In this document: positions 13,690-52,351 of the stretch, piece by piece
Position numbering within the stretch: the stretch's first letter is position 1
Layout: every line of letters begins with the position of its first letter
IMG/VR virus record: IMGVR_UViG_3300045733_000243
Location: 1-52,351 of that record
Reading direction: 5' to 3' (one strand)
Origin: a virus
Taxonomy: Duplodnaviria; Caudoviricetes
Length of the DNA: 52,351 nucleotides
Notes under the pieces: generated by a model
Seen by the model: only the letters and a program-made list of their open reading frames with translations
Database searches by the model: none
What the model was told of the DNA's origin: nothing
Position numbers and translations under genes: made by a program

Positions 13690-14964
13690 ACCACCCCACG
13701 GCTAAAGCCGGGGGCTTTGTCCCTGTACTAGGCGGCGGATTTTAGACCGCAATGCCGTTCCGAGACTTGAGGCCAGTTTACTTTGGCCTTGGCGCTGATA
13801 TTCCGCGCCGCGTTAAGATCAGCGTGGGCTTCATGCCCGCAATGCCGACATTTGAACTCTGATTGACTGCGGCGGTTGGCTTTGTCAACTACGCCGCAGG
13901 CGTTGCACATCCGAGATGTATTTCGCGGATCAACGGCAAACACTTCAACACCCGCCAGTTGGGACTTGTACTCTATGAACTGGCGAAGCTGAAAGAAGGA
14001 CCATCCGTGTATACGAGCCCGCTGACGCTTATGAAGCCGTATTCTGTCGCGAATTCCGCTCAAGTCTTCGAGCGCAATCCCGCGTCCAGTGCCTTTGGCT
14101 GTCTCAACGAGATGCTTGGAAATGCAATGATTAGTGTGCGCCCGGAACCGGGCTTCCTTTTTGGACTGGCGTTTAAGCTTGCGTCTGATGCTTTTCGGCC
14201 GCTTTCCCTTGGCCTTGACTGCTGCGGCGGCCTTCTGAAGCGCGCGGCGCGCGGTAGCGAAACGCTGGCGGCAAGCCTCAATGGCGTCGCCAGACAAGAG
14301 ATCGCCGTCGCTCGTGGCTGCAATGTTGGCCACTCCGAGATCAACGCCGAGAAAATCCGTAGTTGGCGTCTTGGTCCCGTCCGGCAACGTCACTGTAACG
14401 AGCAAGAACCACAGCCCGTCCTTGCGCCGGACAAGATCGCATTGACCTTTGGCGGCGGTAAACCGCTCAGACTGATACTGCCCCATGACGAACGGAACAA
14501 TGATGCGACCCTTGAGCGTCAGCAACGACACACGGTCAACGCCCTTGAACGACATCATGCGCTGGTCAAACGGCATGGATGCAAATGGTCGGAAGCTTAC
14601 GCGCTTCGTCTTGTCGCGCTTGTACGCCTCACATGTCTGCGCGATACAGCGAACAGCCATCTGAGAGGAAAGGCTGAAATTGGCGCGAAGCTCAGCATAA
14701 TGAAGCTTCTGAAGCTCAATCTTATTCGTGCATCGGATATCGAACGCCTTACCTGCAAGCCAGTCGGCAGCGCGGTTAAACGCGCGCAACGTCGCCTCAA
14801 GATCGGCGATCTGCTCTTTCGATGGCAACAGTTGTGTTTGCAGGGTCATTTTCATTCCTCATGCATAGGCTGAAAACGTCACAATGTCAATCTTAAAACA
14901 ACAAGACGCGCATTCCTCCCCACGCATAAATGCGGGGGCTTCCAGCGCAAGCGGATTTGCTTCG
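13686..14964 (-). mobile_element. IS200/IS605-family (IS1341-like, tnpB-only) element
   Basis: Minus-strand left end has TAM TCAC and hairpin GAAG-CCCCCGCATTTATGCGTGGGG. Right end is AAAG-CCCCCGGCTTTAGCCGTGGGGTGGT-TTAC. Both guide/cleavage tetranucleotide pairs follow the IS608 pairing rule. Confidence 0.88.
13728..14855 (-). CDS. tnpB: RNA-guided endonuclease TnpB
   Basis: RuvC-I LGVDLG, RuvC-II IALEDL, CxxC..CxxC zinc finger, RuvC-III HADLNAARNI. TTGACA-17-TATGCA promoter upstream. Confidence 0.95.
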   Translation of the reverse strand: MKMTLQTQLLPSKEQIADLEATLRAFNRAADWLAGKAFDIRCTNKIELQKLHYAELRANFSLSSQMAVRCIAQTCEAYKRDKTKRVSFRPFASMPFDQRMMSFKGVDRVSLLTLKGRIIVPFVMGQYQSERFTAAKGQCDLVRRKDGLWFLLVTVTLPDGTKTPTTDFLGVDLGVANIAATSDGDLLSGDAIEACRQRFATARRALQKAAAAVKAKGKRPKSIRRKLKRQSKKEARFRAHTNHCISKHLVETAKGTGRGIALEDLSGIRDRIRLHKRQRARIHGWSFFQLRQFIEYKSQLAGVEVFAVDPRNTSRMCNACGVVDKANRRSQSEFKCRHCGHEAHADLNAARNISAKAKVNWPQVSERHCGLKSAA

Positions 14965-27500: not shown

Positions 27501-27576
27501 CGGCGCAGGCACCACGGCAGGCGTAGGCGGTAACGGCATTGTTGTTCTGACCAGTCTCAAGACAATCACGAATTAA
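24535..27576 (+). CDS. baseplate wedge gpI-like domain fused to Trp-spaced repeats and glycine-rich domains
   Basis: N-terminal TATGANLD.IA.DFFG...R..ETD..FRRRI, then ~20-aa W-periodic repeats, then TVP..QVE.LG.G type glycine-rich domains. Confidence 0.8.
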   Translation: MTTATEILARLKAVAPKWFGYADTPIIDAVLSGAAVGAADITGQLDDVHLQTRIRTATGANLDMIAADFFGRRIRRNRNETDGSFRRRILAEIFRERATLAGMKKALLDLTTFDARIWEPAKPANGGGYSTGRGGYNYAGAYASLQYPSQAFITVYRPLNVTSVPGINGYSGVIGGYGVGRSQYARIEDSIGAIEDATIHDTVVNVAPAGVRCWVNILSSAALRNIELPCNWASRLDSLITIQTTRSFAAGWTAGGSASLTMLVGNLFAVSWSAGTDVYVNIGAGNLPQGDWSAIGNVSASVQTSWSPAVAWGAQGNATAGLDVERLLSAAWTPQGNASATLASSLDMANAWTLAGNTTVNVSFERLVINGWAASGNATGNIQVTRNLASAMTAGGNATAVIPDFIGSDWAVGGDTSIAMTYGTATIITSGATTTWTVPAGATGLQVEALGAGSDGISSAYAGGGAAYARSNNIPVTPGSTVYLSIGQTPIAAMPGYAGQMGGGGGGGGAGNQSAGGVGSSDATFDSSHGCGSGGGGGGGSGYGGGGGNGGTGGGYGGGGGGRGGNTSTGSGTAGAGTAGLIVATYSGAQHFYASGAGNFVVPAGVTAIQFECLGGGGNGSTGSSAINGGAGGGGGAYSITNSVTVVPGGTVYYSVGGAGTQSWARYATNGAPTGTSDGCLAKGGSPASNYTGGAGGLASTSIGDTKYDGGAGGAGTNSSGGVGGAGGGGGSAGPSGVGQAGGAGTFGLTASHYNAGGGGGGGANGGSSTAGAASTTGSTNGGRGGVGGAGNSGVGGGFGGWVGGHSTWVNVNRNNWPTAASEGCLADGGIGYNPASSGGLAAKCIGDVAYSGGGGAAYSGSGYGGGGGAGGPSGTGKDGATGHTTYGGGGGGGANGGSSTAGSVAVSGAGGAGGAGTAGTGAGSGGTSAAHAGGTGSSGGGGGGAYPSGAGGAGGSDTAFDATHGCGAGGGGGSSGNGGAGGAYGGGGGAGTTAGVGGNGIVVLTSLKTITN
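26815..27243 (+). repeat. 36-nt exact direct repeat (26815-26850 and 27208-27243)
   Basis: GGCGGCGGCGCGAACGGAGGATCGTCAACCGCAGGC occurs twice within the glycine-rich gene. Confidence 0.85.
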
Positions 27577-29812: not shown

Positions 29813-32029
29813 ATGGCTCAAATCAAGGTATTCATTACCGCCGCTGGTGCGAGTACATGGGTAGTCCCCAGCGATTGCATGTCTGCACAGGTTGAGGCGC
29901 TCGGGGCGGGCGGGAATGGGCGCCCGTTTGGGTTTGCCTCCCCTTCTGCCGGTGGAGGTGGAGGCGGGGCCTATGCCCGGACCGCTTATCTCGAACTCAC
30001 GCCTGGAAGCACAGTTTATGTGAACGTCGGGACGTCAACCGGCGATAGCTGGCTGAACAAGTCGGCGAACGCAGCGCCCACGCTGACAACTCAGGGCTGT
30101 CTCGCCAAGGGAGGCAAGACGGCCACGAGCAATGCGGGGGCTGCGGGCGGCGCATCATCGGCGTGCATAGGCGACATCGTCTATTCAGGCGGCAACGGCG
30201 GAACCGACACCAGCGATGGCGGCGGCGGCGGAGGCGGCGCGGCGGGACCATCCGGGGCGGGCCGCGATGGCGGGAATGGCTCGGGGCCATCGTCCGGCCG
30301 TCAGCATGGAGGCGGCGGAGGCGGCGCAAACGGCGGCCTTGCCACAAATGGAAGCGCCGGGTCCACATATGGCGGCAACGGCGGTTCAGGAAGTGGCGGG
30401 ACGGGCGGCGGCGTGGGCGACCAAGGATCTGGGGTCGGCGGCAATGGAACTTTAGGTGGCGGAGGGGGCGGAGGCTACAACACGCCCAATTCGCTCGGCG
30501 GGAACGGTGGCTCCGACACGGCCTTTGACGCGAGTCATGGTTGCGGCGGCGGTGGTGGTGGCGGCGGCTTTGAAACCACCACGACTTCTTACGGTGGTGA
30601 AGGCGGCATTTACGGCGGTGGCGGCGCGGGCGGCGGCGACGGAACCAGGGGTAAGGGCGCCCAAGGCATCGTTGTCATCACATATCAATCGAACTATGTG
30701 CGTTCGCGCCCTGCGAAAACCATCGTCCTTGATGGCGTTGGCTTTGCGCAATGGACTGTGCCGTCTGACTGGTCATCGCCCGACAGCTATGTCGAAGTCA
30801 TCGGCGGCGGGGCCATGGGTGGCGGGGGTAACAAAGCCTCACTCACGGCGTTGTGGCTGAACTTCTTCTGGGGCGTCACTGGCTTCCCGTGGTCTGGCCT
30901 CTCGGGAAAGACCATTCCCGGCGCGGGCGGCGGCGGCGGCGGCGGATACAGCCGGACCAACACGCTCTCGCTCACGCCTGGCGGAACGATCAACTACGCC
31001 ATCGCGCCGGGCGGAACCGATAGCGTCAACGCATCAGGCGGAAACACTTGGTTCGGCGGCTCCAGCTATTCGACGGCATTGGCGGCGGCTGAAGGTGGGT
31101 TTCCTCCGCCTCCGATAAGACCTGCAACGCAAAAGCTCCCGGTAAATATGCTGGCGGGCGCCGCGAACTGCTTTGGCGGCATGGGCGGCAGCGCTGGCAG
31201 CGGTATCGGGGATATCCGTTATTCAGGCGGCAACGGCGGAATTGACCTGTGGCCACATCCGCAATCTGTGGGTGGCTCGGGCGGCGGCGGCGCGGCCGGG
31301 CCTCTCGGCGATGGATCAAGCGGCGGCTCCCTGCCTTCGGACCCATGCGGCGCAAGCGCGGGATCGGGCGGCGGCGGGGCCAACAGCGGCCAAAGCGGAA
31401 GCGCACCTGCATATGCGGCGTCCGGAGGCTGGACGTTCCCAGTGGGTGGCGTGGGTGGCGGCGGTCGCCTCGGCGGCGGCGGCGGAACCACGAACGGCGG
31501 AACTGGCTCAAACGGCGGCGGAGGTGGAGGCGGAAGCTACCGCACCACGGGTAGTGCTGGCGGGGCAGGAGGCGGCGATAGTTCGTTCATCGACACCACG
31601 AGCGGCCGGATTTATGGCTGTGGTGGAGGCGGCGGCGGCGGTTCTGGCGCCACGACGGGCAACTACGGAGGCAACGGCGGAGACGGCGGGCTCTACGGAG
31701 CTGGCGGCGGAGCTGCGGGCGCTGGCTACCAATGCAACGACATCTATCCGTTTGGCGTCGGTGGACGTGGGGCTCAAGGGCTCATCGTGATCACCTATCA
31801 GCCGGATTTAAAAACACCATGGACTGTCGGCGGGGCCGCTACGCTCGGATCGGGCGGGATCGACGTCACCAGCCAAATGGCCAATGCATGGGCGGCGGGC
31901 GGAAACGTCAGCATCAACCTGTCGTGCATCGGCGTTATCGTCAATACGTGGTCGGCTTTGACGAGCGGCGGAAGCTGTTCGGTCAGCGCAATCCATCATA
32001 CGAGATCGGTGTCTACCAATGTTCTCTGA
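29813..32029 (+). CDS. glycine-rich virion/fibre protein (two glycine-rich domains)
   Basis: Two W.VP...VE..GGG...G.GAQG.IVITY units paralogous to those in 24535-27576. Confidence 0.8.
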   Translation: MAQIKVFITAAGASTWVVPSDCMSAQVEALGAGGNGRPFGFASPSAGGGGGGAYARTAYLELTPGSTVYVNVGTSTGDSWLNKSANAAPTLTTQGCLAKGGKTATSNAGAAGGASSACIGDIVYSGGNGGTDTSDGGGGGGGAAGPSGAGRDGGNGSGPSSGRQHGGGGGGANGGLATNGSAGSTYGGNGGSGSGGTGGGVGDQGSGVGGNGTLGGGGGGGYNTPNSLGGNGGSDTAFDASHGCGGGGGGGGFETTTTSYGGEGGIYGGGGAGGGDGTRGKGAQGIVVITYQSNYVRSRPAKTIVLDGVGFAQWTVPSDWSSPDSYVEVIGGGAMGGGGNKASLTALWLNFFWGVTGFPWSGLSGKTIPGAGGGGGGGYSRTNTLSLTPGGTINYAIAPGGTDSVNASGGNTWFGGSSYSTALAAAEGGFPPPPIRPATQKLPVNMLAGAANCFGGMGGSAGSGIGDIRYSGGNGGIDLWPHPQSVGGSGGGGAAGPLGDGSSGGSLPSDPCGASAGSGGGGANSGQSGSAPAYAASGGWTFPVGGVGGGGRLGGGGGTTNGGTGSNGGGGGGGSYRTTGSAGGAGGGDSSFIDTTSGRIYGCGGGGGGGSGATTGNYGGNGGDGGLYGAGGGAAGAGYQCNDIYPFGVGGRGAQGLIVITYQPDLKTPWTVGGAATLGSGGIDVTSQMANAWAAGGNVSINLSCIGVIVNTWSALTSGGSCSVSAIHHTRSVSTNVL

Positions 32030-34663: not shown

Positions 34664-36352
34664 CTAAAACCCTGCACATCTCTGCTCATCCCTGAGTAAA
34701 GTTGCGCATGGACGTCCACCGAGCAGTTTTGTGGACGGTTCGCGTGACGGGATCGCACCGTCATGCGTCCGTGGCGGAAACGTCGGGTTCGCAAGGAACG
34801 CGGCGTCTTCCTCCAGAGACCTGTCCCAAGCCGGGGCGGCTTGCGCCGTCCTCGCCTGGGAAGGTCCAGCAGCCTTGCGGCGGCCGGTCGGACGCAGCCC
34901 TTTGAGGGCCGCTTTCCAGGCGCCCATCGCTCTCGCCCATTGGTCCCGCACATGCCTACGGCCGATCCTTGCAGGTCGGGCGAGGGTGACACGGGACTGG
35001 TTGCGCTTCCTGGTGGCGGGGATGTCCCCGGCCGGGAGCGCAAGCGAGAGCGGCAGACGCTCGGAATAATTCATTGCGCGCCTGCCGATAACGACGGCGG
35101 CTGCGTGATGCACGGAAAGGCCGTAGCGCACCATGAAGCGGGCGCGACCTTGGAATGAGGTGTAAGCCGGATCAACGGCAAGCACGGCGACGCCTTCGCG
35201 AGCTGCGCGGCGCTCCAGCATCGTGCGGAAGCCGTTGAAGGCGAAGGCCGAAAGCATGCGCGCCATACGCGGCCGTGCTTCCTCGCGCAGACGGGTTTTC
35301 TTCGCCTCGAAGTCCAGATCCTCGATCACGATAGGCACGCCCCGGCGCTTGGCCAGCGCGACCAGCCGGGCAGCGGCGTTGCCGATGGACGCCTCAACCT
35401 GATCCGTGCGGCGATGCTGCGTCAGCATCGGGACCGTGAACCGGCCTTTGGGATTGCCGTGGGCGTCAAGAAACGCGGCGGCGAGGAAACCGGCGTTCAT
35501 GTCCACCGCGAGACATCCGCGCGCAAAGTCCGGCGCAGCGTCGGGGAGTTCCTGAAAGAGGCTGACGAACACGCGCCAGCCCTTGGCGTCGCGGACAAAG
35601 CGCCAGGACAGCGCTTCGCCTTGGTCCGTGGCGTGCGCCTGGATCGCGGCCGTCACGACGTCGTGGCCGTAACCAAAGCGCACGGGGCCGAGTTCGATGT
35701 ATTTCTTGGAGCCAAGCTCGCGCCATACCGCGTCGGGCAGGCGCAGGCGCAGCATAACCACGCCGTCGGCGGTCAACGTCGCGGTGCAAGTCTGGTTGCC
35801 GGACGCCTCGTCCTTGGAGCCGAGACAAAAGAACTGGCTGGCGCGCCGCTCGCGCCACACGCCTTGCCATTCGGCATGATCGGAGAAGCCGTTCTCTTCC
35901 AAATGATGCTGCGCGTTGAACAACTTGGCTGAGCCGAAGCAGAGCGCGGGAGCTGGGCGCTTTATCTCTGCGCGGATTGCGGTCTGCCGGTCACGCAAAA
36001 TGCCGAGGCGGCGCTTTTTCTGATGCAGCTTCGCGGCGGACGCTTTGCGCTTCTCCAGTTTACGGATGGTCTTGAGCGTCACCTTGATGCGGGCGTCCAG
36101 CTCACGCAACCGAAGCTTGCCGATTTCCTTCAGGCTCGACGCCTTGCCCTTCGCCGCAACCGCCAGCGCGTTGAACTGGCGAGCCGTGATCCCAAACCGG
36201 CGCAAGAATTCGCTCTTGCAGTCGTTGGGTTTACGGCCTTTCGCCATCTCAGCCCACAAGCAGCGCTCCGCACGAGAAAGCAGAGCCGCAGTCGCGTCAA
36301 GAGCAGGATGGCCGTCAATTCGAGCTTGGAAGGTGCTGGCTTGATTGATCAT
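34664..36352 (-). CDS. tnpB: long TnpB-related RuvC protein (562 aa)
   Basis: RuvC-I LAVDMN and RuvC-II IVIEDL; RuvC-III region reads HHAAAVVIGRRA; no CxxC zinc finger. Confidence 0.88.
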   Translation of the reverse strand: MINQASTFQARIDGHPALDATAALLSRAERCLWAEMAKGRKPNDCKSEFLRRFGITARQFNALAVAAKGKASSLKEIGKLRLRELDARIKVTLKTIRKLEKRKASAAKLHQKKRRLGILRDRQTAIRAEIKRPAPALCFGSAKLFNAQHHLEENGFSDHAEWQGVWRERRASQFFCLGSKDEASGNQTCTATLTADGVVMLRLRLPDAVWRELGSKKYIELGPVRFGYGHDVVTAAIQAHATDQGEALSWRFVRDAKGWRVFVSLFQELPDAAPDFARGCLAVDMNAGFLAAAFLDAHGNPKGRFTVPMLTQHRRTDQVEASIGNAAARLVALAKRRGVPIVIEDLDFEAKKTRLREEARPRMARMLSAFAFNGFRTMLERRAAREGVAVLAVDPAYTSFQGRARFMVRYGLSVHHAAAVVIGRRAMNYSERLPLSLALPAGDIPATRKRNQSRVTLARPARIGRRHVRDQWARAMGAWKAALKGLRPTGRRKAAGPSQARTAQAAPAWDRSLEEDAAFLANPTFPPRTHDGAIPSREPSTKLLGGRPCATLLRDEQRCAGF

Positions 36353-36978
36353 GACTCGCCAGCCTCTTCAACTGCACGCTTTACGCCTTCGAGAAGCTTC
36401 TTATTCTTCTTTGAGCGTGCACCGTAAAGTCTAGCGGAAAAAACTGTAATTATTTCAAGAACATCTGTGGCGAGGTCTTGTTCAAACGTGGTGTCTTCGC
36501 CCTTATTCAGGATGACAACCTCAACATTCCGAGCCTCGCAGATGGCGAACACTAACTCAGCGCCAAAGCGTAAGAGTCTATCCTTATGCGTCAAGACAAG
36601 TCGGCCAATGTTGTTGTCAATGATGTTTTCAATTAGGCGCTTTAAGCCCTTTTTATGATAGTTCATCCCCGAGCCGAGATCGGAGACGACTTCGAACGTC
36701 CAGCCTTGGGCGGCGCAATACGCCTCAAGAACCTGCTTCTGACGCTCTAAATCGGCTTTTTGATCGTGGCTTGACACGCGAGCATAGGCGATGGTCTTGC
36801 GCTCGGCATCGTCGGCGGCGCGGAACAACTCCGGGCGCAGCGCGGAAATATCATACCGCCGTTGTCCGCCCTTCGTGCGCTGGGGTATGAGTTTCCCTTC
36901 GCGCTCCCAACGGCGAAGCGTCTGAGGAGATACCCTCAGAGCTTCCGCCGCTTCGCTTATGGTCAATAACTTGTTCAT
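36349..36978 (-). CDS. tnpA: IS607 transposase (MerR-type HTH + serine recombinase)
   Basis: TLRRWEREGK...GGQRRY, YARVSS catalytic motif, DRLLRFG, FSARLYG. TTGACA-17-TACATA promoter just upstream. Confidence 0.96.
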   Translation of the reverse strand: MNKLLTISEAAEALRVSPQTLRRWEREGKLIPQRTKGGQRRYDISALRPELFRAADDAERKTIAYARVSSHDQKADLERQKQVLEAYCAAQGWTFEVVSDLGSGMNYHKKGLKRLIENIIDNNIGRLVLTHKDRLLRFGAELVFAICEARNVEVVILNKGEDTTFEQDLATDVLEIITVFSARLYGARSKKNKKLLEGVKRAVEEAGES

Positions 36979-37800: not shown

Positions 37801-38196
37801 CTAAGCCGCCCTACGCTGGCCCAATCCCATTTTCTTGGCGAGTTCTGAGCGCTGTGCAGCATATGCCGGGGAAACCATCGGGTAATCCATCGGTAGTCCC
37901 CACTTTGCGCGATACTCTTCTGGGCTAAGATCGTAGTTGGTGCGGATATGCCTTTTAAGACTGCGGAACTTCTTGCCGTCCTCCAAGCAAATGATGAATT
38001 CAGGCGTTACCGACTTCTTGATAGAGACAGCCGGAACCAGTTCCACCTTCGGCTGAGCGGCACCGTTCAACGCCACATCACTCAACATCGTGTGCACCGA
38101 CGTGATTAAATCGGGCACCTTGTCCGCCTGAATGGTGTTGTGCGAAACATACGCGGCAACAATCCTACCGGTAAGTTCAAGGATATTCTCTTCCAT
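37801..38196 (-). CDS. mucR: MucR/Ros family transcriptional regulator
   Basis: LT..IVAAYVSHN, PAVSIKKSVTP, ICLEDGKKFRSLKRH, YR.KWGLP.DYPMV.P.YA..RS.LAK.MGLG. Confidence 0.96.
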   Translation of the reverse strand: MEENILELTGRIVAAYVSHNTIQADKVPDLITSVHTMLSDVALNGAAQPKVELVPAVSIKKSVTPEFIICLEDGKKFRSLKRHIRTNYDLSPEEYRAKWGLPMDYPMVSPAYAAQRSELAKKMGLGQRRAA

Positions 38197-38326
38197 TCCA
38201 ATATCTTCCATCTGAATTCCATATTAACTGTGTGTTTCTTCGCTGTTACGCACAGTAAACCGCATCATTTCGCGGTGTCAACAATTATTCCAACTTTAGC
38301 AAACAAATCTCAAATGGAGGCTGGCA

Positions 38327-40408: not shown

Positions 40409-41822
40409 TCAGGCGACGCCGTATTGCTTGGCAAGCGCCTCATTCAGTGTTTTGGACCGCTTGGCGACCTCGACGCCGGGCCGCGACCGGAACCTGATCA
40501 CTGTGGCAGCCGATGCCGTTGGCGGCGTCTTTATCGCCTTGGGCGCGGTCTTCTTTTTGGCCTTGGGCTTTACCGCAGGCTTGCCGCCCTTGGGGCCGGG
40601 AGGTGTCGCCACGGCGATTTCGGTTCCTGTCGCGGATGCCTCTGGTTCACTGGCAACCGCGAGAGTGGCTCCCGTTGTGTCTGACATTTCTTCTGCCATT
40701 TTTCCTCCGAACTCCATGAACTCGCTCCACATTTCTTCCACTGTGGCCTCAAGGATCGCTTGGGCCAAGGGATCGGTTTCAGGTTCCGCCTCAACAGCTA
40801 CGAACTGCGGGGCGGCTTCGATCTTCGGAGTAGCCAGCTCCACGCGTTCGGCTTCAGCCTGGCGGGCGGCCTCAATGCGGGCCGTCTCTAGTGCTTCAGC
40901 AGCCGCGCGGCGACCGGCTATCCCATTGTTAATGGTCCGCCCAGCGTAGCCGCCGAGCATTTGCAGGATCAGCAGCGTCACGATAAGCATCCCAGTGCGT
41001 CCGACAGTGGACCACTGGGTGGCTGCCGTCTCATCCCAGCCATACGCTACGAAAAATGCTGTGGCTCCGTCTGACTTGGCGGGGCCGCCGATTTGTGCGC
41101 GTTCGGCCTCGGCTCTCTCTGCCTTGGCGTCGGCGCGCGTGGCATCGCCGTCGAATTGACGGGCGCGGCCGTCGTCCTGCGTCGCTTGCGCGAACAGGGA
41201 AACGCGGCTATGGGCTTGCGATAGAGCGTTTTTAGCGGCAGCGGAGGAGTCTAGCGCTGCCTGGCAACCTTCTGCGTCCCTGCACGCCTTCTTTGCCTTC
41301 CCTGCGGCCTTGAGCGCGGTGTCCGCCTTCCCGCTGGCGCGCCTCATGGCGGCTTCTAGGTCGGAGGGAGTTCCGTGCTCGGTGATCGAAGATGCTGCGT
41401 GACGAGCCGTTTCGGCATGGTTGCGGGCAATGACCGCTTGATTGCGCGCCGTCTTGGCTTCGTTCTTGGCCTCTTCAATCTTCCCTAACGCCCTTGCGAG
41501 CGCTTGGTTCTGCGAACTGGCCAACTCAATCGCGTGGCCGGCGTTGCTCATGTGTGCGCCGATCTGACACGACAGCGACAGCAGCGCGCAGGCGATAATC
41601 GCCACACGCGAGATCATGACGTGCCCATTAATCGACGCGGCGAGGGCGATCACCACCAAGGCGATGTCCGCCAATCCGTAAATCCATGGCGGCCTCAATG
41701 GAGACCTCCAATCCAGCCCTCACGTTAAGGGCGAGGGCCACGATGGTTGCAATGACAACGACGAGCAGCAGCGATCTGCCTACCCGCAGTTGCGCTTTCC
41801 AGTTGTGGGTTGTATCGTGCAT
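40409..41822 (-). pseudogene. membrane/coiled-coil protein gene with an apparent 1-nt frameshift near 41686
   Basis: TM segment ...GLEVSIEAA continues as WIYGLADIALVVIAL in the adjacent frame (GCC GCC A TGG ATT). Confidence 0.6.
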
Positions 41823-41934
41823 AGCGCACCATCTTCCTATCCAGGGTTGATATTGCCTACGCCGCCGAGGGCCGCAATCCCTCGGCGGCGTGTTTCTCGC
41901 CGCTGATCGGCTGGATGGTGGGCGTCCAGGCCGA

Positions 41935-42150
41935 TCAGTCTTCGAGCAGTTTGCATCCTCCATGAAGAATTGTCGGGCCGCTTATCACGTAGGAGATCTG
42001 AACATCATCAGTTGAGACCATGATCTCTGTACCATCCTCTTGAAATATTATTTTTGCAAAAGGGGTTTGGTCTCTCTTGATAATATCAGACGCCAAACAG
42101 TCAATGGCGTTACGGAATTCAACTGGAAGATGCTCTGAAGCTAACTGCAT
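41935..42150 (-). CDS. hypothetical protein
   Basis: AT-rich 71-aa ORF co-oriented with its neighbours. Confidence 0.45.
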   Translation of the reverse strand: MQLASEHLPVEFRNAIDCLASDIIKRDQTPFAKIIFQEDGTEIMVSTDDVQISYVISGPTILHGGCKLLED

Positions 42151-42254
42151 TTTACTTGCTCCACGCTTTCAGGCTGCACGATTGCCGCCTGCCTCAACGC
42201 TCGGAAAGCACTGAGGAAGGGGGCAAGGGCGGGACTTCGGTCCCGCCGATGGCC

Positions 42255-42545
42255 TCAAGCCGCCCGCGTCAGCCCGTACTCATGGGCGTCGAGCCGATGC
42301 TCATCCGCTTCAAAGGCAGCCACATCGCGCTCAACGGCGGCGTAATGTTCTTCCGTCTTTGCGACCCACTCATCGACGTTCGCGAGCGTCTCTGTGGCGG
42401 CGATGAACAGCAGGTTGCCGCGAAGCCGCGCAATGTCGTCCTTGCGGTGCTCGCCGCCCGACACATAATCGGGGGCCAGGCGGTCGAAGGCGTCCAAAAA
42501 CGCGTCCAGGGCTTGCGAGTCGATGTTCCGTAGTGATACGTTCAT
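42255..42545 (-). CDS. hypothetical protein
   Basis: Acidic helical ORF MNVSLRNIDS... preceded by a structured leader. Confidence 0.6.
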   Translation of the reverse strand: MNVSLRNIDSQALDAFLDAFDRLAPDYVSGGEHRKDDIARLRGNLLFIAATETLANVDEWVAKTEEHYAAVERDVAAFEADEHRLDAHEYGLTRAA

Positions 42546-42677
42546 TGTGCTGCCTATCCGGTTGGTCCTGGGTGGTTGGCCTCTACCGGCCTCGGGGTTG
42601 TCGCCCTGGGGCCGTTTGTGTTCGGACTGTCGTCCGCTAAGTGGGCCGCCGAAGCAGCCCACGAAAGCATAATTCAT

Positions 42678-42920
42678 TGGGTTAACCCCTTTCTGTCTTC
42701 GCTTGCGCGAGTAATGTTTGCCTCGCCCGGTGTAAAAGGCTTGTCATATCCGAGACCTTCGATGCATCCCCAGACACATCTTCATGATTTCGAACGATAG
42801 AGCGTCAGACTGGCACGCATCCGACGGTATCGTGACCTTCTAAACGTCTCCTCTTGCGAGGGGGCTGGTCAGTAATTGGGGCCTCTACAAGCCCCCGGCT
42901 TTAGCCGTGGGGTTACTGAC
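42678..42920 (-). ncRNA. IscB-type omegaRNA (HEARO-like) scaffold without iscB
   Basis: 5' GTCAGTAA pairs with TTACTGAC and encloses the IS-end hairpin CCCCACGGCTAAAGCCGGGGG. It is followed by CAGCC, a CCTC-GCAA-GAGG hairpin, a CGTCGGA/TCTGACG hairpin whose TGCC loop can pair with GGCA in GGCGAGGCAAACATTAC, a TCGC-GCAA-GCGA hairpin, then SD and MNYAFV. Confidence 0.85.
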
Positions 42921-42969
42921 GGCCCGAAATGGCCTCTGTGTAGGGGTCGGGAGCGCGAATGTCGCCGGA

Positions 42970-43419
42970 TCATGGCGCCTCTCGCGCTCTGAACCGTGGC
43001 GACGCCTCAACGTCAACCGTTGCTGGCGGGGGCGGCAACTCGTGCCAATGTGTTGGAGCCATATCGCCTTCGAGGCGCTCAGCCCCATGCTCACCTATTG
43101 ACCACCAGTCTTCGGCCCAAAATGCTTCCTCTTCGTATTCGTCAACCTCTGGGCTGTTACCATCCACAAGCCAATCGGCGACGCATCCATAATGCCCCAT
43201 AAACACGCCAGCATCTTCGCGATACACGAGCACATCTTGGTGGTGTGGTGCTGTCTCTATTGGTTTCCAGTCATTATCGCCACAAAAGGGGCAACGCTTT
43301 AACGGTGTAACTTCTAGGATAGCGAGCGCCATACTCTGCTTTATGTCATGTTTACGCTTCACATCTTCGAAGTGGGCGTGGCCTGCTGCCATTTCTTCAT
43401 CATAGGGGTCGTTTGTCAT
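42970..43419 (-). CDS. DUF551-like phage protein
   Basis: LKRCPFCG, WKPIETAP and PTHWHELPPPP motifs. Confidence 0.75.
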   Translation of the reverse strand: MTNDPYDEEMAAGHAHFEDVKRKHDIKQSMALAILEVTPLKRCPFCGDNDWKPIETAPHHQDVLVYREDAGVFMGHYGCVADWLVDGNSPEVDEYEEEAFWAEDWWSIGEHGAERLEGDMAPTHWHELPPPPATVDVEASPRFRAREAP

Positions 43420-43472
43420 CGGCGTGCTCTGTGTTTGACGCTGCGGTGGAAGGAGGGGCCGAGGCCCCTGGG

Positions 43473-43766
43473 TTAGGCGGCCAGCTTCCGGCCCCTGTTG
43501 ATCCAGCGATACGCTTTCTGCGCCCACTTGCGAGCATCCTCAATCGTCTCGAAATTTCCCTCGCTGGCGGATTGTGGCTCGCCTTGGACGAATTCCTCGG
43601 GCTGATATTCGAAAACCTGGATGTATTCGCCGGTTTCCTCGTCCCGAGCCCAAGCTTTGACGCCCTCGCGGATTGACTTTGTGTCTGTCATTCCGATGGG
43701 GCTTGTGAACTTTGCTGAGAAGCGGCGGCGGGCTCCGAGAGTGTATGTGGTGGTGTATGCGGTCAT
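43473..43766 (-). CDS. hypothetical protein
   Basis: GGAG SD; first gene after the promoter at ~43806-43848. Confidence 0.65.
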   Translation of the reverse strand: MTAYTTTYTLGARRRFSAKFTSPIGMTDTKSIREGVKAWARDEETGEYIQVFEYQPEEFVQGEPQSASEGNFETIEDARKWAQKAYRWINRGRKLAA

Positions 43767-43805
43767 GCTCGGCTCCATCTGGCTGTGTGCTTGTCTCTGA
43801 TTGAG

Positions 43806-43848
43806 AATGTAGCGCCATCCCGTATTTTTGGCAATACCAAAAATGCAT
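43806..43848 (-). promoter_or_regulatory. sigma70-like promoter with palindromic operator over -35
   Basis: TTGCCA-17-TACATT with the ATTTTTGG-N5-CCAAAAAT palindrome. Confidence 0.75.
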
Positions 43849-43849
43849 C

Positions 43850-44059
43850 TCAGCCGGTTTTTTTCTTCTCCAGCTCCTCGCTGTACCACGCGAGAGCTAT
43901 CCGCACGGCAGAGCACCTGTCAACGTTGCCATGCGCCACCTGGATGGCTTGCAGCGCAGCCAAAGACGCATCATCCAGGCGGAGGGGAACCGAATGTGGA
44001 TAGGCCCTGCCTGCGGGCCTGCCGCGCTCGCGTTTCTTGGGTGTGGGGGTGTCTGTCAT
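43850..44059 (-). CDS. small DNA-binding protein (RGRP + RHH-like)
   Basis: KKRERGRP...VPLRLD...RCSAVRIAL. Confidence 0.6.
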   Translation of the reverse strand: MTDTPTPKKRERGRPAGRAYPHSVPLRLDDASLAALQAIQVAHGNVDRCSAVRIALAWYSEELEKKKTG

Positions 44060-44340
44060 CTGGCGGCCTTTGGCTTGGGATAGCGCGAAAAGCCAGTGTC
44101 GTTGCCGATGATGGTGACGTAAACGCCAATACCCGATGTGTCGCAGCCAATATACCCCTCATCAAGGAAATGCTTGGCCGCTTCGAATGTTGGGGCCGCA
44201 TGTGCATGCCCCCATGCTTCAGCAGTATAGTAGTCGGTATATACGGCGTTGTTATTGTAGCTATCGCGCCATCCAGGGGAAAGTTCAGCTTCGCCAAACT
44301 TCGCCATGTCAGCGATATAAAAATCAAATCCGATTTCCAT
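44056..44340 (-). CDS. hypothetical protein
   Basis: AAGGAG SD; ATGA overlap with the next gene. Confidence 0.65.
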   Translation of the reverse strand: MEIGFDFYIADMAKFGEAELSPGWRDSYNNNAVYTDYYTAEAWGHAHAAPTFEAAKHFLDEGYIGCDTSGIGVYVTIIGNDTGFSRYPKPKAAR

Positions 44341-44393
44341 GGTTTTTGCTCCTTAAGTGGATGGCCGCCGAGCACGACCATCCTTTTCTAACA

Positions 44394-45023
44394 TTACGCC
44401 GCAATCTTGGGGCGCTGGATGAATGTCTGCTTGATGCCGTTATGCTCGGCGTGACTCTTGACCGTGGCGACGATCTTCAGCGTGTCTCCCTTTGCGATAC
44501 CAACCCCGAGCACCTTCGAGCCTTTGTAAACGAAGATGTTTCCGTCCTCAGAGCGGAGGACGTGGAAATATGTGAAGCCGTACACGCCCTCGAAAGCCTT
44601 CACGATACAGACGCACACGCGGACTGTGATGCGATCCTTGACGGAGCCGATATGCTTGGAATTTGCTGCGTCGGCCACGTTCGTCTGGCGCTTCAGCTCG
44701 TCGGTAACCGCCTGGATTTGGGCTTTTGAGCCTTCCCAGCCGACGACCTCTCCGTTGTGCAGCGCCGCAACAGTCCGAATGGAGGAACTGCCGCAGCTAC
44801 CGCGCTCTTCGAGTTCTTCATCGCTCAGTTCCGGCAGGTATTCGCCAGCGCGGAACAGCTTGAACGTGAGCGGGCATTCGTAACCGTCATACGGCGCATG
44901 GTAACGTCCATTGCAGTCAGGCGTAGCCTCTGGGTAAATTTCAAGCATAACATCATTCATTTGGCGGGGAGCCTTGGCAATGTGGATGGCCTCGACTGCG
45001 GCGAAATCGGTGCAAATGTACAT
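44394..45023 (-). CDS. hypothetical protein with C-terminal OB-fold-like domain
   Basis: SKHIG...R.......YG......DGN.FV...ATVK.H.E.NG.KQT.I.RPK; GAGGGAG SD. Confidence 0.7.
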   Translation of the reverse strand: MYICTDFAAVEAIHIAKAPRQMNDVMLEIYPEATPDCNGRYHAPYDGYECPLTFKLFRAGEYLPELSDEELEERGSCGSSSIRTVAALHNGEVVGWEGSKAQIQAVTDELKRQTNVADAANSKHIGSVKDRITVRVCVCIVKAFEGVYGFTYFHVLRSEDGNIFVYKGSKVLGVGIAKGDTLKIVATVKSHAEHNGIKQTFIQRPKIAA

Positions 45024-45064: not shown

Positions 45065-45107
45065 CTTATACCTCGCACCAATGTTTTTGGCAATACCAAA
45101 AATGCAT
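45065..45107 (-). promoter_or_regulatory. second copy of the promoter/operator
   Basis: TTGCCA-17-TATAAG; shares 24 nt (TTTTTGGCAATACCAAAAATGCAT) with 43825-43848. Confidence 0.75.
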
Positions 45108-45328: not shown

Positions 45329-46021
45329 TCAGCCCGTCTTCCTGCGCAGATATTCCACAAGATTTCCGTTCTCCATCGCGTCAAACAGCTTTATCTTGGC
45401 GTCATCCTCTGTGCTAAATTGGAGCTTACCACGAACACCATTTACTTTTATTCGATATCCACCATCAAAAAGTGCAATATCAACTATTGAGTTCAGAGTT
45501 TTTATCTGAAGAACTCCCCCATCTGTGCGCTTCCACCTCTTGGAGTTAAGAAACGTCTTTAGTCTTCGGTCCTGCTTTTTGACTTCGTCCATGTATTCGC
45601 TAGCGAATGTAGTCCCTGTTAAATGGTCGCAGCATATCGTGCCCACATCCATTGGATGCCAATCTTCATGCTCGATGGTGAATACGTAGCGGATTGCCGT
45701 TCCGCACAACTCACACGACCCAACTAGTTCCTCAAGATCGTGCGTGTCAGTGTGCTCCCAGCCGCTACTTGGCATTCCCATATCGCGCGGGTGGATTACC
45801 CCGAGTATCCCGTGATGCCTGGCGTGGCATCCTTTGCATAGGGTCACGCAATCGTTGAGGGCGTATTCCCACGGCATCCTCCCCTTGATGTATCTTTTGT
45901 GGTGCACCTGGAGCACGACGCCGTCTTCCCTGCCGCGTCCGCATTGGGAACAGCATCCGCCGTCGAACTCGATCACCTCTTCTCGGAACGTGTTCCAGGC
46001 GGCTTTTCGATAGTTTTTCAT
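45329..46021 (-). CDS. HNH endonuclease-domain protein with extra Cys-rich domain
   Basis: CSQCG...LQVHHKRY...TLCKGCHARHH, then CELCG...VGTICC. Confidence 0.85.
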   Translation of the reverse strand: MKNYRKAAWNTFREEVIEFDGGCCSQCGRGREDGVVLQVHHKRYIKGRMPWEYALNDCVTLCKGCHARHHGILGVIHPRDMGMPSSGWEHTDTHDLEELVGSCELCGTAIRYVFTIEHEDWHPMDVGTICCDHLTGTTFASEYMDEVKKQDRRLKTFLNSKRWKRTDGGVLQIKTLNSIVDIALFDGGYRIKVNGVRGKLQFSTEDDAKIKLFDAMENGNLVEYLRRKTG

Positions 46022-46437: not shown

Positions 46438-48537
46438 TTACCCCCCTGAGGACCACACTTTCTTGTCCTTGACGCCCACCATTTTTGCCGCTTGGAGCTT
46501 GGATCTGAGCTTCCTGAACAAGGCCCCCGACGATTTGTCGTCCTTGCACTCCTCGAACATGCCGATTGACCGGCATTCCTCTTTCCACGCGTCCATGGTG
46601 GTGACCATGTTGACGTGCCTCGGAATGCCTTCGTCGCGCCTTGGGGCCGCCCCTGAGGCGATCAGGGCCTCTCTAAGGGCTCTTAGAGCCAGTCCCTCCT
46701 GCCCTCCAGGGTCGCGCTGTCTCTTCTGTGCGGGGCCGTCCTTTGGTTCCAGAACGCACGAAGTGATGGCGTCGCCGTCTTCGTCAATTCCAACCTCAAC
46801 GATTTTCAAGGTGCTGCTGATGGTGGCGCCGTCCTCTCCGTCCTTCATGTACTCGACGGTGCTGATGATGTTTTTGTATTCATCCTTGGTAACGCCTATC
46901 TGAGTGTCAGCAGCTCCTAGAAGAGACGTGTGTCCTCTCGCTCTTCCTGCTTCAAGGCCGCTGTGGTGGACGACTATCACCACGCAGTTGAACGCCTCTT
47001 TGATGGCGTCGCACGCTGCAATGTATGCAGTCATGTCCGTGTCGCTGCTCTCTGAGCCTGTAAAGGACCGATTAAGAGTATCTAGTATAACAACATTTGG
47101 AGTTTCGCTGCACATCTTTTCTTTGATGCTTTCGATTAGCCTTGCATGATCTGCGACAATGGCAATTTTTGTTGCCATTAAGTAGAATGGCACGGTTCCT
47201 TCGTGGTCTTGCAAAAACTCTTTTTCATATGCCGCTTTCCTGGCCTGAAACCCAGACTGGCCTTCAAACAAGCAGTAAAGAATTTTCCCACTGCGAACCC
47301 TGTGCCCACGGTACTCTCTGCCGAGGGCAACGTGCATAACAAGATCAAAAACCCAGAATGTCTTCCCGCATTTTGGGGGGCCGTACACAACCGCCAGTCC
47401 TGTTGATGGCAATATGTTTTTAACAAGATATTTCGGGTCTTTCGTTACCTTTATATCCGCCCAGTCTATAATGGGTAGAGGCTTTTTGTCTTTAGGCTTC
47501 AGGGCTGTGTGGTGGTCGTTTCGGGGAGGGAAGTTGATTACGGTGTCATCCATCATGGACAATTCTTTCGATGCATTGGCAACCGCATCATTTATGATTG
47601 ACGAGACTGCATCAATGCCCAGTTCTGACGCCATGTCGTTAAAGTCGGAGCCGCCTGTGCGAGTTGGGATGGCCAACGCGCCGCCAACCGCTGTGGCGGC
47701 GTCCCGCCCTGCTTTCATCCCGGCATTGCCTTTGTCAGCAGCCTCCTTCGCATGATCGTCGTCAGCACATATGCAGATGCTGGCGTCTGGGTACCGCTCC
47801 CGTATCGCGCGGGCGACCCTGGGAAGGTTTCCACTATTGAAGGCGCATACTGACGGATGCCCAGTCCCTTCGTGGCATGTCGCCATCGTGGCAAATCCTT
47901 CGCCAATTAGAATGACGCCACTTGGGTCTATGGAGCCGATGATGAACATGCCGCCAGCCGTGCGGCCGTCCTTGAGGAAGAGTTTCGAGCTATCGCTCTT
48001 CTCGTCATCTTGGATGCGTTGCAGGGACATCCATCGGCCGTCAATGTCCATGACGGGAATAAGCAGCGTCACGCCGTCTGTGTCGATTCTGACGCCGTGT
48101 GGGCCTATTCCCTTGTTTTCCAGGTATCTGTGGTCAGTGGCTGGTGGCGCCGCAGCGAAGCGCCTCTCGGCGTCCTGGGAGACTGCTGCTTGCTTAGCCG
48201 CGCGCCTCTCGTCAGCTTCTTTTCGTTCACGCTCAGCATTCAGCTTGGCGTCGAGCTTTTCGGCCTCTGTGCGGGTGTCTGGGGCGTCTGAGAACCATAG
48301 CTGGGCGTCCTCGCCGGTTTCCCAGTTTTGGATCATCCCGCAGCGGCTCTCTGGCCTGAACCAGTATGCTCCGTTGCTGCTGCTGGGGTGATCTGCGGTC
48401 CCGCACCTGTGAATTTCGCCGTCCGTATCGAGCTTACCAATGCGAAGCCCAGCCGCCGTCGCAGCCGTGAGGAAGCCAAGATCTATTCCGTGTGCGTCGC
48501 CGTTGACTTTGGCGCGCGTTTTTTCTACGATGGCCAT
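46438..48537 (-). CDS. primase (TOPRIM)-helicase (RecA-like, AAA_25) fusion
   Basis: GEGFAT and CADDD TOPRIM motifs, DFND, Walker A GPPKCGKT, Walker B ILDT, VHHSG...RG.TSL.GAAD. Confidence 0.93.
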   Translation of the reverse strand: MAIVEKTRAKVNGDAHGIDLGFLTAATAAGLRIGKLDTDGEIHRCGTADHPSSSNGAYWFRPESRCGMIQNWETGEDAQLWFSDAPDTRTEAEKLDAKLNAERERKEADERRAAKQAAVSQDAERRFAAAPPATDHRYLENKGIGPHGVRIDTDGVTLLIPVMDIDGRWMSLQRIQDDEKSDSSKLFLKDGRTAGGMFIIGSIDPSGVILIGEGFATMATCHEGTGHPSVCAFNSGNLPRVARAIRERYPDASICICADDDHAKEAADKGNAGMKAGRDAATAVGGALAIPTRTGGSDFNDMASELGIDAVSSIINDAVANASKELSMMDDTVINFPPRNDHHTALKPKDKKPLPIIDWADIKVTKDPKYLVKNILPSTGLAVVYGPPKCGKTFWVFDLVMHVALGREYRGHRVRSGKILYCLFEGQSGFQARKAAYEKEFLQDHEGTVPFYLMATKIAIVADHARLIESIKEKMCSETPNVVILDTLNRSFTGSESSDTDMTAYIAACDAIKEAFNCVVIVVHHSGLEAGRARGHTSLLGAADTQIGVTKDEYKNIISTVEYMKDGEDGATISSTLKIVEVGIDEDGDAITSCVLEPKDGPAQKRQRDPGGQEGLALRALREALIASGAAPRRDEGIPRHVNMVTTMDAWKEECRSIGMFEECKDDKSSGALFRKLRSKLQAAKMVGVKDKKVWSSGG

Positions 48538-49992: not shown

Positions 49993-51198
49993 ATGCTCCT
50001 CGTCCACAAAATAGCGCTGAACCCTAACAACAGACAGGCTGGCCTTATGGCCAAGTCTGCCGGTGTTGCACGGTTTGCCTATAACTGGGCGTTAGGAGAA
50101 TGGAACCGGCAGTACGAAGCTGGCGGCAAGCCATCTGAAGTATCTTTGCGCAAGCAGTTCAACGCACTGAAGAAGTCAAATTTCCCATGGTGCTATGAGG
50201 TGACAAAGAACGCCCCACAGCAAGCCATCAAGAACTTGGGGAAGGCGTTCGAGCGCTTCTTCAAGAAGCAAGGCAAATACCCACGGTTTAAGCGCAAAGG
50301 CGTCCACGACAGCTTCCGCGCTGACGATGGAACTGGGAAAACGAAACCGCAGGCTGTCCAGATCGAAGGCAAGCGCGTCAAACTCCCGGTCATCGGCTGG
50401 GTGAGGATGCGTGAAGAACTCCGGTTCAGCGGCCAAGTCCGCTCCGCAGTCGTGTCAAAGACTGCCGGACGCTGGTTCGTTGCATTGAGCGTAGATACTG
50501 AAGACCAACCCGAGACGTGCGAAAACCAAGGCGTCATCGGTGTCGATCTTGGAATAAAGACTATGGCGGTTTGCTCAAACGGAATGAAGTTTGAAGCCCC
50601 GAATGCTCTGCGCAAGCGTCTGAAGAAGCTTGCAAAGCTTCAGAGGATTGTTGCACGGCGCAAGAAGGGATCGAAGAACCGGCGCAAAGCTGTGGCGAAA
50701 GTGGCGAGACTGCACGCGAAGATCGCGAATATTCGCTCCGACGCGCTGCACAAGGCCACCACGGCAATCTGCAAGAGCGGAAGTCTTATCGTCCTTGAAG
50801 ACCTCAATGTCAAAGGAATGATGAAGAACGGCAAGCTTTCGCGCGCCATATCCGACGTTGGGCTGTACGAATTCCGCCGCCAGTCCGAGTACAAGACAGC
50901 TTTATTCGGCTCGGACATCATGTTTGCGCCAAGGTTTGAGCCGACAAGCAAGCGCTGTTCACGTTGCAAAGTCGTCCGCAAGACTTTGCTTTTGAGCGAG
51001 CGCGAGTGGACATGCGACAACTGCGGCGCACATCACGACCGCGACGAGAACGCCGCACAGAATTTAGAAGACTATGGTACCGCCAGATCGGCGGGAACTT
51101 ACGCCTGTGGAGAATTCAGCGCTGACGGCTTGCTTGCGCAAGTCGTGAAACTGAACTCAGTGAAGCAGGAAATATTCACAGGAGCTACGCAATGTTAG
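49993..51198 (+). CDS. tnpB: RNA-guided endonuclease TnpB (IS607-type)
   Basis: HKIALNPN...ARFAYNWAL, IGVDLG, IVLEDL, CxxC..CxxC, HDRDENAAQNL. Confidence 0.96.
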   Translation: MLLVHKIALNPNNRQAGLMAKSAGVARFAYNWALGEWNRQYEAGGKPSEVSLRKQFNALKKSNFPWCYEVTKNAPQQAIKNLGKAFERFFKKQGKYPRFKRKGVHDSFRADDGTGKTKPQAVQIEGKRVKLPVIGWVRMREELRFSGQVRSAVVSKTAGRWFVALSVDTEDQPETCENQGVIGVDLGIKTMAVCSNGMKFEAPNALRKRLKKLAKLQRIVARRKKGSKNRRKAVAKVARLHAKIANIRSDALHKATTAICKSGSLIVLEDLNVKGMMKNGKLSRAISDVGLYEFRRQSEYKTALFGSDIMFAPRFEPTSKRCSRCKVVRKTLLLSEREWTCDNCGAHHDRDENAAQNLEDYGTARSAGTYACGEFSADGLLAQVVKLNSVKQEIFTGATQC

Positions 51199-51747: not shown

Positions 51748-52351
51748 GTGAATACTCCCCAACTAAGCGCAGAGCGCTGTAGTTGGGGCTTCTCGGTTCG
51801 CGGAGCATTGCGCACCACTCTTGCGAGTTTTGCGGCTTACAGGCTCTCCCCGAGCGTTGGGATTACTCCCGGTTCCGACCATCCCGGCCGTACCTTCCTT
51901 ACGGATATTGGCGCGCTTGCGTTCTTTTGGCGACCATTGACCAGACAGGATAATATCCACGCCCCTGTTCGCAACATTGCGCGAGGCGTTTCTGTCGGCA
52001 TTCTCAATGGCTCCGCAGTCTTGGCAAACAAACAGGCTTTGGCTGACCCGGTTGTTAGGATGTGTGCAGCCACAAAAGCTGCAATCCTGCGAGGAACGAT
52101 AGGGCGTTACGGATATGCTAAGCTTGTGAAGTCTCCGCGCTTTGTACGCGGTGTAGGTTTTAGTCTGGCTCCAGGCGGACGCGAGGATGGAACGATTGAG
52201 GCCAGCTTTCTGGCGGACGTTGCGGCCGGGAGCGTCGGCGGTCCCTTTTGCCGACGCCGTCATGTTCTTGACCTTGAGGTCTTCGAAGACGATCAGCGCA
52301 ACGCGCGGGTCGTTGGCGAGGGCGTGGCTGGCCTTGTGGGCGAAGTCCCGG
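51748..52351 (-). mobile_element. IS200/IS605-family element, right part (runs off the window)
   Basis: Right end GAAG-CCCCAACTA...TAGTTGGGGAGTAT-TCAC, with the guide/cleavage pair GAAG/TCAC. Confidence 0.85.
51763..52350 (-). CDS. tnpB: TnpB, C-terminal part
   Basis: IVFEDLKVKNMTASAKGT...KAGLNRSIL, CSFCG, CQDCG, NADRNASRNV. Confidence 0.93.
   Translation of the reverse strand, partial: RDFAHKASHALANDPRVALIVFEDLKVKNMTASAKGTADAPGRNVRQKAGLNRSILASAWSQTKTYTAYKARRLHKLSISVTPYRSSQDCSFCGCTHPNNRVSQSLFVCQDCGAIENADRNASRNVANRGVDIILSGQWSPKERKRANIRKEGTAGMVGTGSNPNARGEPVSRKTRKSGAQCSANREAPTTALCA

Follow-up and report, generated by a model that had tools for sequence, protein, structure and literature searches.

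An orphan IscB-type omegaRNA in a river phage genome is most likely the recently stranded end of a known mobile element

Results

The window, by which we mean the whole stretch of DNA analysed here, is an entire IMG/VR virus record from a river phage; it is linear, 52,351 bp long and approximately 94% complete. Pfam searches of its 51 ORFs place a tailed-phage structural module on the plus strand (terminase, portal and baseplate proteins) and a replication and regulation module on the minus strand, the latter comprising a Toprim/AAA primase-helicase (46438-48537), a Rha-like protein and a Ros/MucR-family regulator (37801-38211, E = 4e-48). The phage-encoded Ros/MucR regulator hints at an alphaproteobacterial host, and comparison of the primase with GTDB genomes gave partial matches of 41% and 58% to two alphaproteobacterial MAGs. 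The phage has no blastn match among GenBank phages, and a search of IMG/VR with the primase and two flanking proteins returned nothing beyond at most two 14-residue matches. Two plus-strand ORFs, 24535-27576 (1013 aa) and 29813-32029 (738 aa), have GGC-rich, glycine-coding repeats in common and probably encode tail-fibre-like proteins.

Genes of the IS200/IS605/IS607 type are unusually numerous in the window (Table 1), a heavy load for a 52-kb phage. They include a serine recombinase that adjoins an ORF of 562 aa whose match to the TnpB zinc ribbon is weak, and this pair, which spans 34664-36978, looks like an IS607 element. No Y1 TnpA is encoded among the 51 window ORFs. The genome is otherwise GC-rich, but at 12818-12865 an AT-rich unit of 24 nt is exactly duplicated in tandem. 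The subject of this study lies on the minus strand, where a structured RNA is co-oriented with the phage genes on both of its sides.

Table 1. Features of the omegaRNA locus and transposon-related features elsewhere in the window.
Feature	Position	Strand	Basis or remarks
Sister TnpB element	13693-14938	-	Pfam OrfB_IS605 and Cas12f1-like_TNB; hairpins on both sides
TnpB-like ORF	13728-14855	-	Pfam
Serine recombinase (MerR HTH and Resolvase)	36349-36978		Pfam
Downstream phage gene, 96 aa from ATG 42545	42255-42545	-	No Pfam or PHROG match
9-bp hairpin with TTCG loop, starting at the breakpoint	42641-42662	-	Sequence; paired in the MFE structure; phage DNA or junction
iscB start remnant, ATG AAT TAT GCT TTC GTG (MNYAFV), with AAAGGGG before it	42660-42677	-	
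IscB-transposon-derived block (end hairpin, scaffold, terminal GCAA hairpin, ribosome-binding site, first 17 nt of iscB)	42661-42920	-	Repeat unit in river metagenomes
omegaRNA scaffold, HEARO (RF02033)	42711-42920	-	107.8 bits, model 1-211 of 211; 58 of 67 pairs standard
Transposon-end hairpin, CCCCCGGC-TTTA-GCCGTGGGG	42889-42913	+ (as read)	25 nt, 100% complementary to 13693-13717
Guide position, 16 nt of phage DNA abutting the transposon end (GAGGCCATTTCGGGCC)	42921-42936	-	Comparison of flanks; the only window match is its own site
Upstream phage gene, same orientation; stop 49 nt before the scaffold	42970-43419	-	
Promoter-like TTGCCA-17-TACATT, 9 of 12 matches	43806-43834	-	Within a recurring 24-nt motif
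TnpB-like ORF, 401 aa, HTH_OrfB domain	49993-51198	+	Pfam
TnpB fragment, 166 aa, close to the end of the record	51763-52263	-	Pfam

When the whole window was scanned against Rfam with cmscan, the sole match above threshold was to the HEARO family (E = 2.4e-21). The score of 107.8 bits compares with a gathering score of 83 bits, and the entire model is covered. A first-pass annotation, made from the sequence without database searches, had proposed an IscB-type omegaRNA here and named an Rfam scan as a check; the match confirms that proposal. The closing stem that it described, GTCAGTAA/TTACTGAC, is indeed the outer helix of the HEARO model, and this stem, the 5' hairpin and the conserved GAUGC...GCCAGUC...GCUCU core all align to it. 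Besides the standard consensus pairs two more are deleted on both sides; the consensus helices can form. The minimum free energy of 42630-42945 (minus strand) is -123.1 kcal/mol (z = -3.68), and none of 100 shuffled sequences folded equally well. Two GNRA hairpins had also been noted, and both can be read in the sequence as GCAA-capped hairpins (CCUC-GCAA-GAGG and CGC-GCAA-GCG). The TGCC/GGCA pseudoknot is not confirmed as originally described, its pairing being different from that of the pseudoknot annotated in Rfam. By a crude count that took in 136 motif sites, a complementary loop/tail tetramer is present in 13 of the 29 loci with a recognisable tail motif.

From 42920 to the base before the iscB ATG (42678) the scaffold measures 243 nt, in line with the initial estimate of about 240 nt, and IscB omegaRNAs upstream of the ORF are given an average of 242 bp by Meers et al. 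(10.1101/2023.03.14.532601). It is intact, as had been supposed, in the sense that it is complete as far as the iscB start codon. Its HEARO score is lower than those of all 13 IscB-linked matches scored (119.3-156.5 bits). Because an identical second copy exists, as described below, this suggests divergence of the lineage rather than decay.

The scaffold begins at the same GTCAGTAA in four contexts, each of which has a 5' flank of its own: the window, the viral fragment L141/L143, the metagenome contig L142, and runs X1 and X4 with their foreign flank (see below for the last three). As in HEARO RNAs generally, the scaffold of the phage copy begins at the transposon boundary and the copy-specific 5' flank is the guide, which is simply the flank of the insertion. 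The guide length, which we take to be 16 nt, is set by analogy with characterised IscB. These 16 nt match only their own site in the window when up to three mismatches are allowed, in agreement with the original remark that the guide has no second match there.

Beyond the ribosome-binding site, likeness to IscB extends from the ATG at 42677 through six codons and then stops, as the early reading of the locus had it. The N-termini of IscB in the fetched loci follow M..VFVLD..K.PL.PC.PARAR, and the phage sequence departs from them after the sixth codon. The rest of iscB, already reported as missing, is absent from the window: tblastn gave a best E value of 0.029, inside the primase gene, and no RRXRR, RuvC or IscB-type HNH domain was found by Pfam among the 51 ORFs. 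The tblastn queries were 17 ORFs of at least 350 aa that lie downstream of the RNA motif in the fetched loci, chosen with a loose N-terminal filter and including at least two (L029 and L067) that are not IscB-like. An HNH ORF at 45329-46021 was considered as a possible IscB and rejected, being an ordinary phage HNH by PHROGs without likeness to IscB. The phage RNA accordingly differs from typical HEARO loci in its neighbourhood, where no iscB or isrB ORF follows directly in the same orientation and only MNYAFV remains.

The iscB ATG is in frame with the downstream phage gene, and a 140-aa ORF (42255-42677) results. The 88 nt at 42573-42660 have no similarity to the fetched loci or to the remaining window, nor do they recur in the metagenomes. 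At 42587-42614, on the plus strand within this minus-strand operon, a hairpin of 12 pairs precedes a T-rich run; three or four of its pairs are G-T, which become C-A mismatches on the other strand, so that these pairs form on the plus strand only.

Transposon ends shared between the omegaRNA locus and a tnpB gene connect two distant parts of the window. The end hairpin of the IscB remnant recurs over 25 nt, exact and inverted, at 13693-13717, shortly after the tnpB stop codon and hence at the 3' end of the tnpB element. This copy belongs to a sister element in which tnpB (375 aa) has one hairpin upstream at 14918-14938, CCCCCGCA-TTTA-TGCGTGGGG, and another past its stop at 13694-13714. On the presumed top strands the hairpin of the IscB remnant and that at the tnpB 3' end both read CCCCCGGC-TTTA-GCCGTGGGG. 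Meers et al. (10.1101/2023.03.14.532601) trace the IscB scaffold to the right end of its element, with iscB pointing inward, and the hairpin orientation in the phage agrees with a right-end origin as set out there. A loose pattern for the hairpin family, CCC..TTTA..GGG, picks out three sites in the window (42892-42912, 13694-13714 and 14918-14938) and no fourth. Since two of these belong to the TnpB element, the IscB piece is without its far end, as had been recognised at the outset, and it does not show the related subterminal hairpins at both ends that mark an intact IS200/IS605-type element. We suggest that the IscB remnant and the TnpB element were served by one TnpA that is not encoded by the phage. 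The TnpB element at 13693-14938 is itself non-autonomous.

Logan contigs from four river metagenome runs were placed on 41000-45000 of the window. Run X1 contains a 260-nt contig that is exactly 42661-42920, with no differences, and run X4 a 305-nt contig in which the same interval, with one difference, is followed by 45 letters of flank foreign to the phage. The same foreign flank beyond 42920 is present in X1 as a loose end (among the loose ends listed), and it does not occur in the window. In X1, X2 and X4 the phage contigs arriving from the left stop at 42690, which leaves a 30-nt overlap as at a graph branch with k=31. Taken together, the contigs that cover exactly 42661-42920, the stops at 42690 and the foreign flank mean that this community also has the 260-nt block at another site, and that the right edge of the block is the transposon boundary. 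Contig depth in X1 is a poor measure and offers a rough hint only (82.9 for the block, 65.6 and 52.4 for its neighbours), and gaps in some runs, such as the interval 43010-43810 over which X1 has no listed contigs, are not interpretable. The phage copy leaves the shared sequence at 42661, two bases into codon 6, and from the position of this break within a codon we infer that the second copy carries iscB.

The phage junction itself (42465-42690) is without differences in X1, X2 and X4, which are possibly samples of one campaign, and contigs are continuous through 42573-42660 in the same three runs, with the proviso that contigs can hide rare forms. Related community copies of the RNA in X2 and X4 show nine differences, all of which keep or improve pairing and among which are two double compensatory changes. 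The RNA of this family is thus under structural constraint, which is expected from its IscB-linked members and uninformative on the phage copy. Run X2 also contains a phage variant that is approximately 86% identical to 42465-42572 (15 differences), the region of the start of the downstream gene. From 42573 the variant diverges fully, its next 187 letters matching nothing on the examined stretch, and it may represent a relative that lacks the insertion.

Further relatives of the RNA were sought by pattern and by blastn. An exact 25-mer of the RNA was found in none of the genomes and none of the viral contigs searched; a P1-anchored pattern occurred in no genome, in one viral contig and in two metagenome contigs, one of these being the same contig as the viral one. 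The IMG/VR viral fragment L141/L143 (16.3 kb) carries only the first 88 nt of the scaffold, at 97.7% identity, before unrelated DNA begins; it shares nothing further with the phage, and its neighbouring genes are tail-like (Rcc01698_C and DUF2793). Within 959-1264 of that fragment the 88-nt scaffold start passes directly into a 73-aa ORF without a Pfam match which, judged by eye, resembles the C-terminus of an HNH homing endonuclease. In the short metagenome contig L142 the scaffold likewise starts at GTCAGTAA, and 91 nt are shared at 90% identity. When 135 motif loci were compared with the RNA by blastn, they matched in the conserved core only.

HEARO RNAs without a complete iscB are frequent elsewhere. 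Among 40 bacterial loci chosen by the core motif, 27 score above the HEARO threshold; nine of these have an IscB-like ORF of 428-465 aa, two have stubs of 29 or 51 aa, 12 have none and four are cut by contig ends. The 15 viral motif loci include seven above threshold (four with IscB, one cut, and L004 and L008 without). Intact iscB is therefore missing at 14 of 23 assessable bacterial and two of six assessable viral HEARO, with its presence judged by ORF length and N-terminal motif (Pfam for viral L005 and L006 only) and frameshifted genes counted as 'none'. Orphan HEARO RNAs are the commoner state in this sample. For comparison we turned to one proteobacterial MAG and retrieved 16 of its 18 HEARO sites. 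Its multi-copy IscB elements, the G160 family, have near-identical hairpins at both ends. Alongside them are three minis that consist of the RNA part and 51-84 nt of the far end, one internally deleted copy and one copy of the RNA part only; the phage copy is of the one-ended sort, like this last.

In the class to which the host probably belongs, HEARO and IscB are seldom encountered. None of 151 genomes sampled from the alphaproteobacterial class of the nearest primase relative has a HEARO match, and RRXRR was above cut-off in one of 401, while the same search recovered HEARO in four of four known carriers. HEARO was likewise found in none of the five alphaproteobacterial genomes reached via the motif loci. 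The lone class match (G199; L161, 1456-2030) is an 85-aa IscB stub behind an 85.1-bit HEARO; it was rejected as a close relative of the phage RNA, being a decayed element of a different, divergent family.

With respect to expression, the first-pass annotation had placed the RNA downstream of a strong promoter at about 43830. A promoter-like site does exist at 43834-43806 on the minus strand. A scan of that strand found no intrinsic terminator between this site and the scaffold. An exact 24-nt repeat (43825-43848 and 45084-45107), partly palindromic and containing TTTTGGTATTGCCAAAAA on the minus strand, overlaps promoter-like -35 hexamers, and is likely to be a repeated early promoter/operator. 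Among the listed runs that contain the stretch there is no RNA run. Transcription of the phage operon probably runs through the remnant, which by itself probably does nothing.

Discussion

The phage RNA is a genuine and complete IscB omegaRNA on a recently truncated, one-ended remnant of a kind that is already known, and its host phage is heavily colonised by related elements. With HEARO (RF02033), the omegaRNA of IscB in IS200/IS605-type ISC elements, it shares a full-length model match, the outer closing stem, a transposon-end hairpin at the 5' edge, a guide outside the element and, set against the average given by Meers et al., its length. It differs in having six iscB codons in place of a gene of approximately 415-465 codons, and in the loss of the far end. 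Stand-alone omegaRNAs and PATE-like derivatives, as they are described in PMC11610941 and by Meers et al. (10.1101/2023.03.14.532601), resemble it in being scaffolds without a nuclease that need one in trans. However, PATEs in these accounts keep both ends and can be mobilised by TnpA, whereas the phage copy is one-ended and immobile by transposition, and it resides in a phage genome rather than in a host chromosome. A further parallel is provided by the ISGst families of Geobacillus stearothermophilus, where, as reported by Meers et al. (10.1101/2023.03.14.532601), one TnpA serves TnpB and IscB elements with related ends. The phage IscB remnant and TnpB element likewise share an end hairpin (25 of 25 nt), but unlike the ISGst pair they have no Y1 TnpA in the same genome, and the IscB partner is a remnant. 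In a non-exhaustive search of the literature we found no description of orphan omegaRNAs in phages.

We consider it likely that an IscB-type IS200/IS605 element has left one stranded end at this locus after iscB from codon 7 onwards and the far end were deleted. According to the model, the element would have inserted 49 nt behind the upstream phage gene in the direction of transcription, as is usual for elements of this kind, and a later deletion would have taken iscB from codon 7 on together with the far transposon end. Left over would be the end hairpin, the full omegaRNA scaffold and a ribosome-binding site with six codons. The remnant would look perfect through youth and not through any need of the phage, since an identical 260-nt copy with another flank is present in the same metagenomes. 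The outcome that the first-pass annotation had itself named as refuting its proposal, namely a relic of a recent deletion with no match but its own empty site, is the one that fits best. Thus the locus most likely represents what a known mobile element has recently left behind, and not a new weapon of the phage. Counting against a mere relic, the deletion leaves the whole RNA untouched, base for base, along with its ribosome-binding site and start codon, and this neatness, coupled with the in-frame start codon, could reflect selection. The unchanged phage junction across X1, X2 and X4 indicates a stable arrangement, and the orientation is the transcribed one, behind a promoter-like site and with no terminator called in between. 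The original proposal that the phage reprograms or titrates a host IscB with its own guide RNA, as a protein-free hijack or decoy, is speculation, as its sole ground is the intactness of the RNA and youth already explains that.

A different reading, which we regard as unlikely, is that the RNA travels by its guide only. The phage omegaRNA would be loaded, in an infected cell, by the IscB of intact siblings and would cut phages whose site is uninterrupted, given a guide match and a TAM; the remnant would then be copied into the cut genomes by recombination, or competitors would be removed. The RNA is complete and identical to the community copy, so a matching IscB may be near, the pairing-neutral or compensatory changes of the related copies point to constraint on the family, and both orientation and the promoter-like site suit expression. 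There is also precedent in the form of proposals: stand-alone omegaRNAs acting in trans with OMEGA systems, found in host chromosomes (PMC11610941, on Altae-Tran 2021), protein-less PATEs carrying omegaRNAs (Meers et al., 10.1101/2023.03.14.532601) and homing into co-infecting phages, which PMC13565253 treats as a theoretical mode. However, no IscB is seen, and the survey of the nearest primase relative's class, with its control, yielded nothing apart from the single truncated RRXRR ORF. The constraint on the family is what IscB-linked copies would produce, and is silent on the phage copy; the X2 variant is alike only to 42572, so that the RNA is not common at that distance; and the TAM side has gone with the far end. 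The sharper version of this idea, in which a guide-only parasite of IscB is expressed from the operon, borrows the IscB of a sibling and cleaves co-infecting sibling phages that lack the insertion, gaining spread by recombinational repair without transposition or an edge in mixed infections, strikes us as quite improbable.

It is also distinctly improbable that the locus is a complete, nuclease-less mini-transposon of the PATE type, some 348 nt in length (42573-42920), whose far end would be the 88 nt that include the hairpin at 42587-42614. The three G160 minis offer a template for such a unit, the hairpin has its 12 pairs on the plus strand, which is the expected top strand, and the likeness of the X2 variant to the window ends at 42572, precisely where the unit would begin. 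Against this, the far-end hairpin to be expected, CCCCCG..TTTA..CGTGGGG as in the TnpB element and at both ends of G160, is not found near 42573-42660. The repeat unit ends at 42661 in three samples and the contigs are unbroken beyond it, whereas a PATE would keep both ends and be repeated in its entirety, and the 88 nt resemble nothing in the fetched loci or the rest of the window.

Exaptation of the remnant as an expression signal, with its good AAAGGGG site and ATG, in frame from 42677 through to 42255, starting the 140-aa protein or with the structured RNA acting as a leader, is very improbable, given that the 44 extra residues are Gly/Pro/Arg-rich and match nothing in Pfam or PHROGs, that the X2 variant is conserved only from 27 nt upstream of ATG 42545, as fits the 96-aa start, and that the sole leader-like match (L2-Alphaproteobacteria, 18.8 bits against a cut-off of 37.8) is at chance level.

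As the probable stranded end of an IscB element, the locus documents the decay of such elements in phage genomes, with boundaries defined to the base, a sibling copy elsewhere in the community and a TnpB element with the end hairpin in common. Should the RNA prove to work with an IscB supplied in trans, the virus would possess a nuclease-free homing element, and guide RNAs would be seen to be exchanged between mobile elements in nature.
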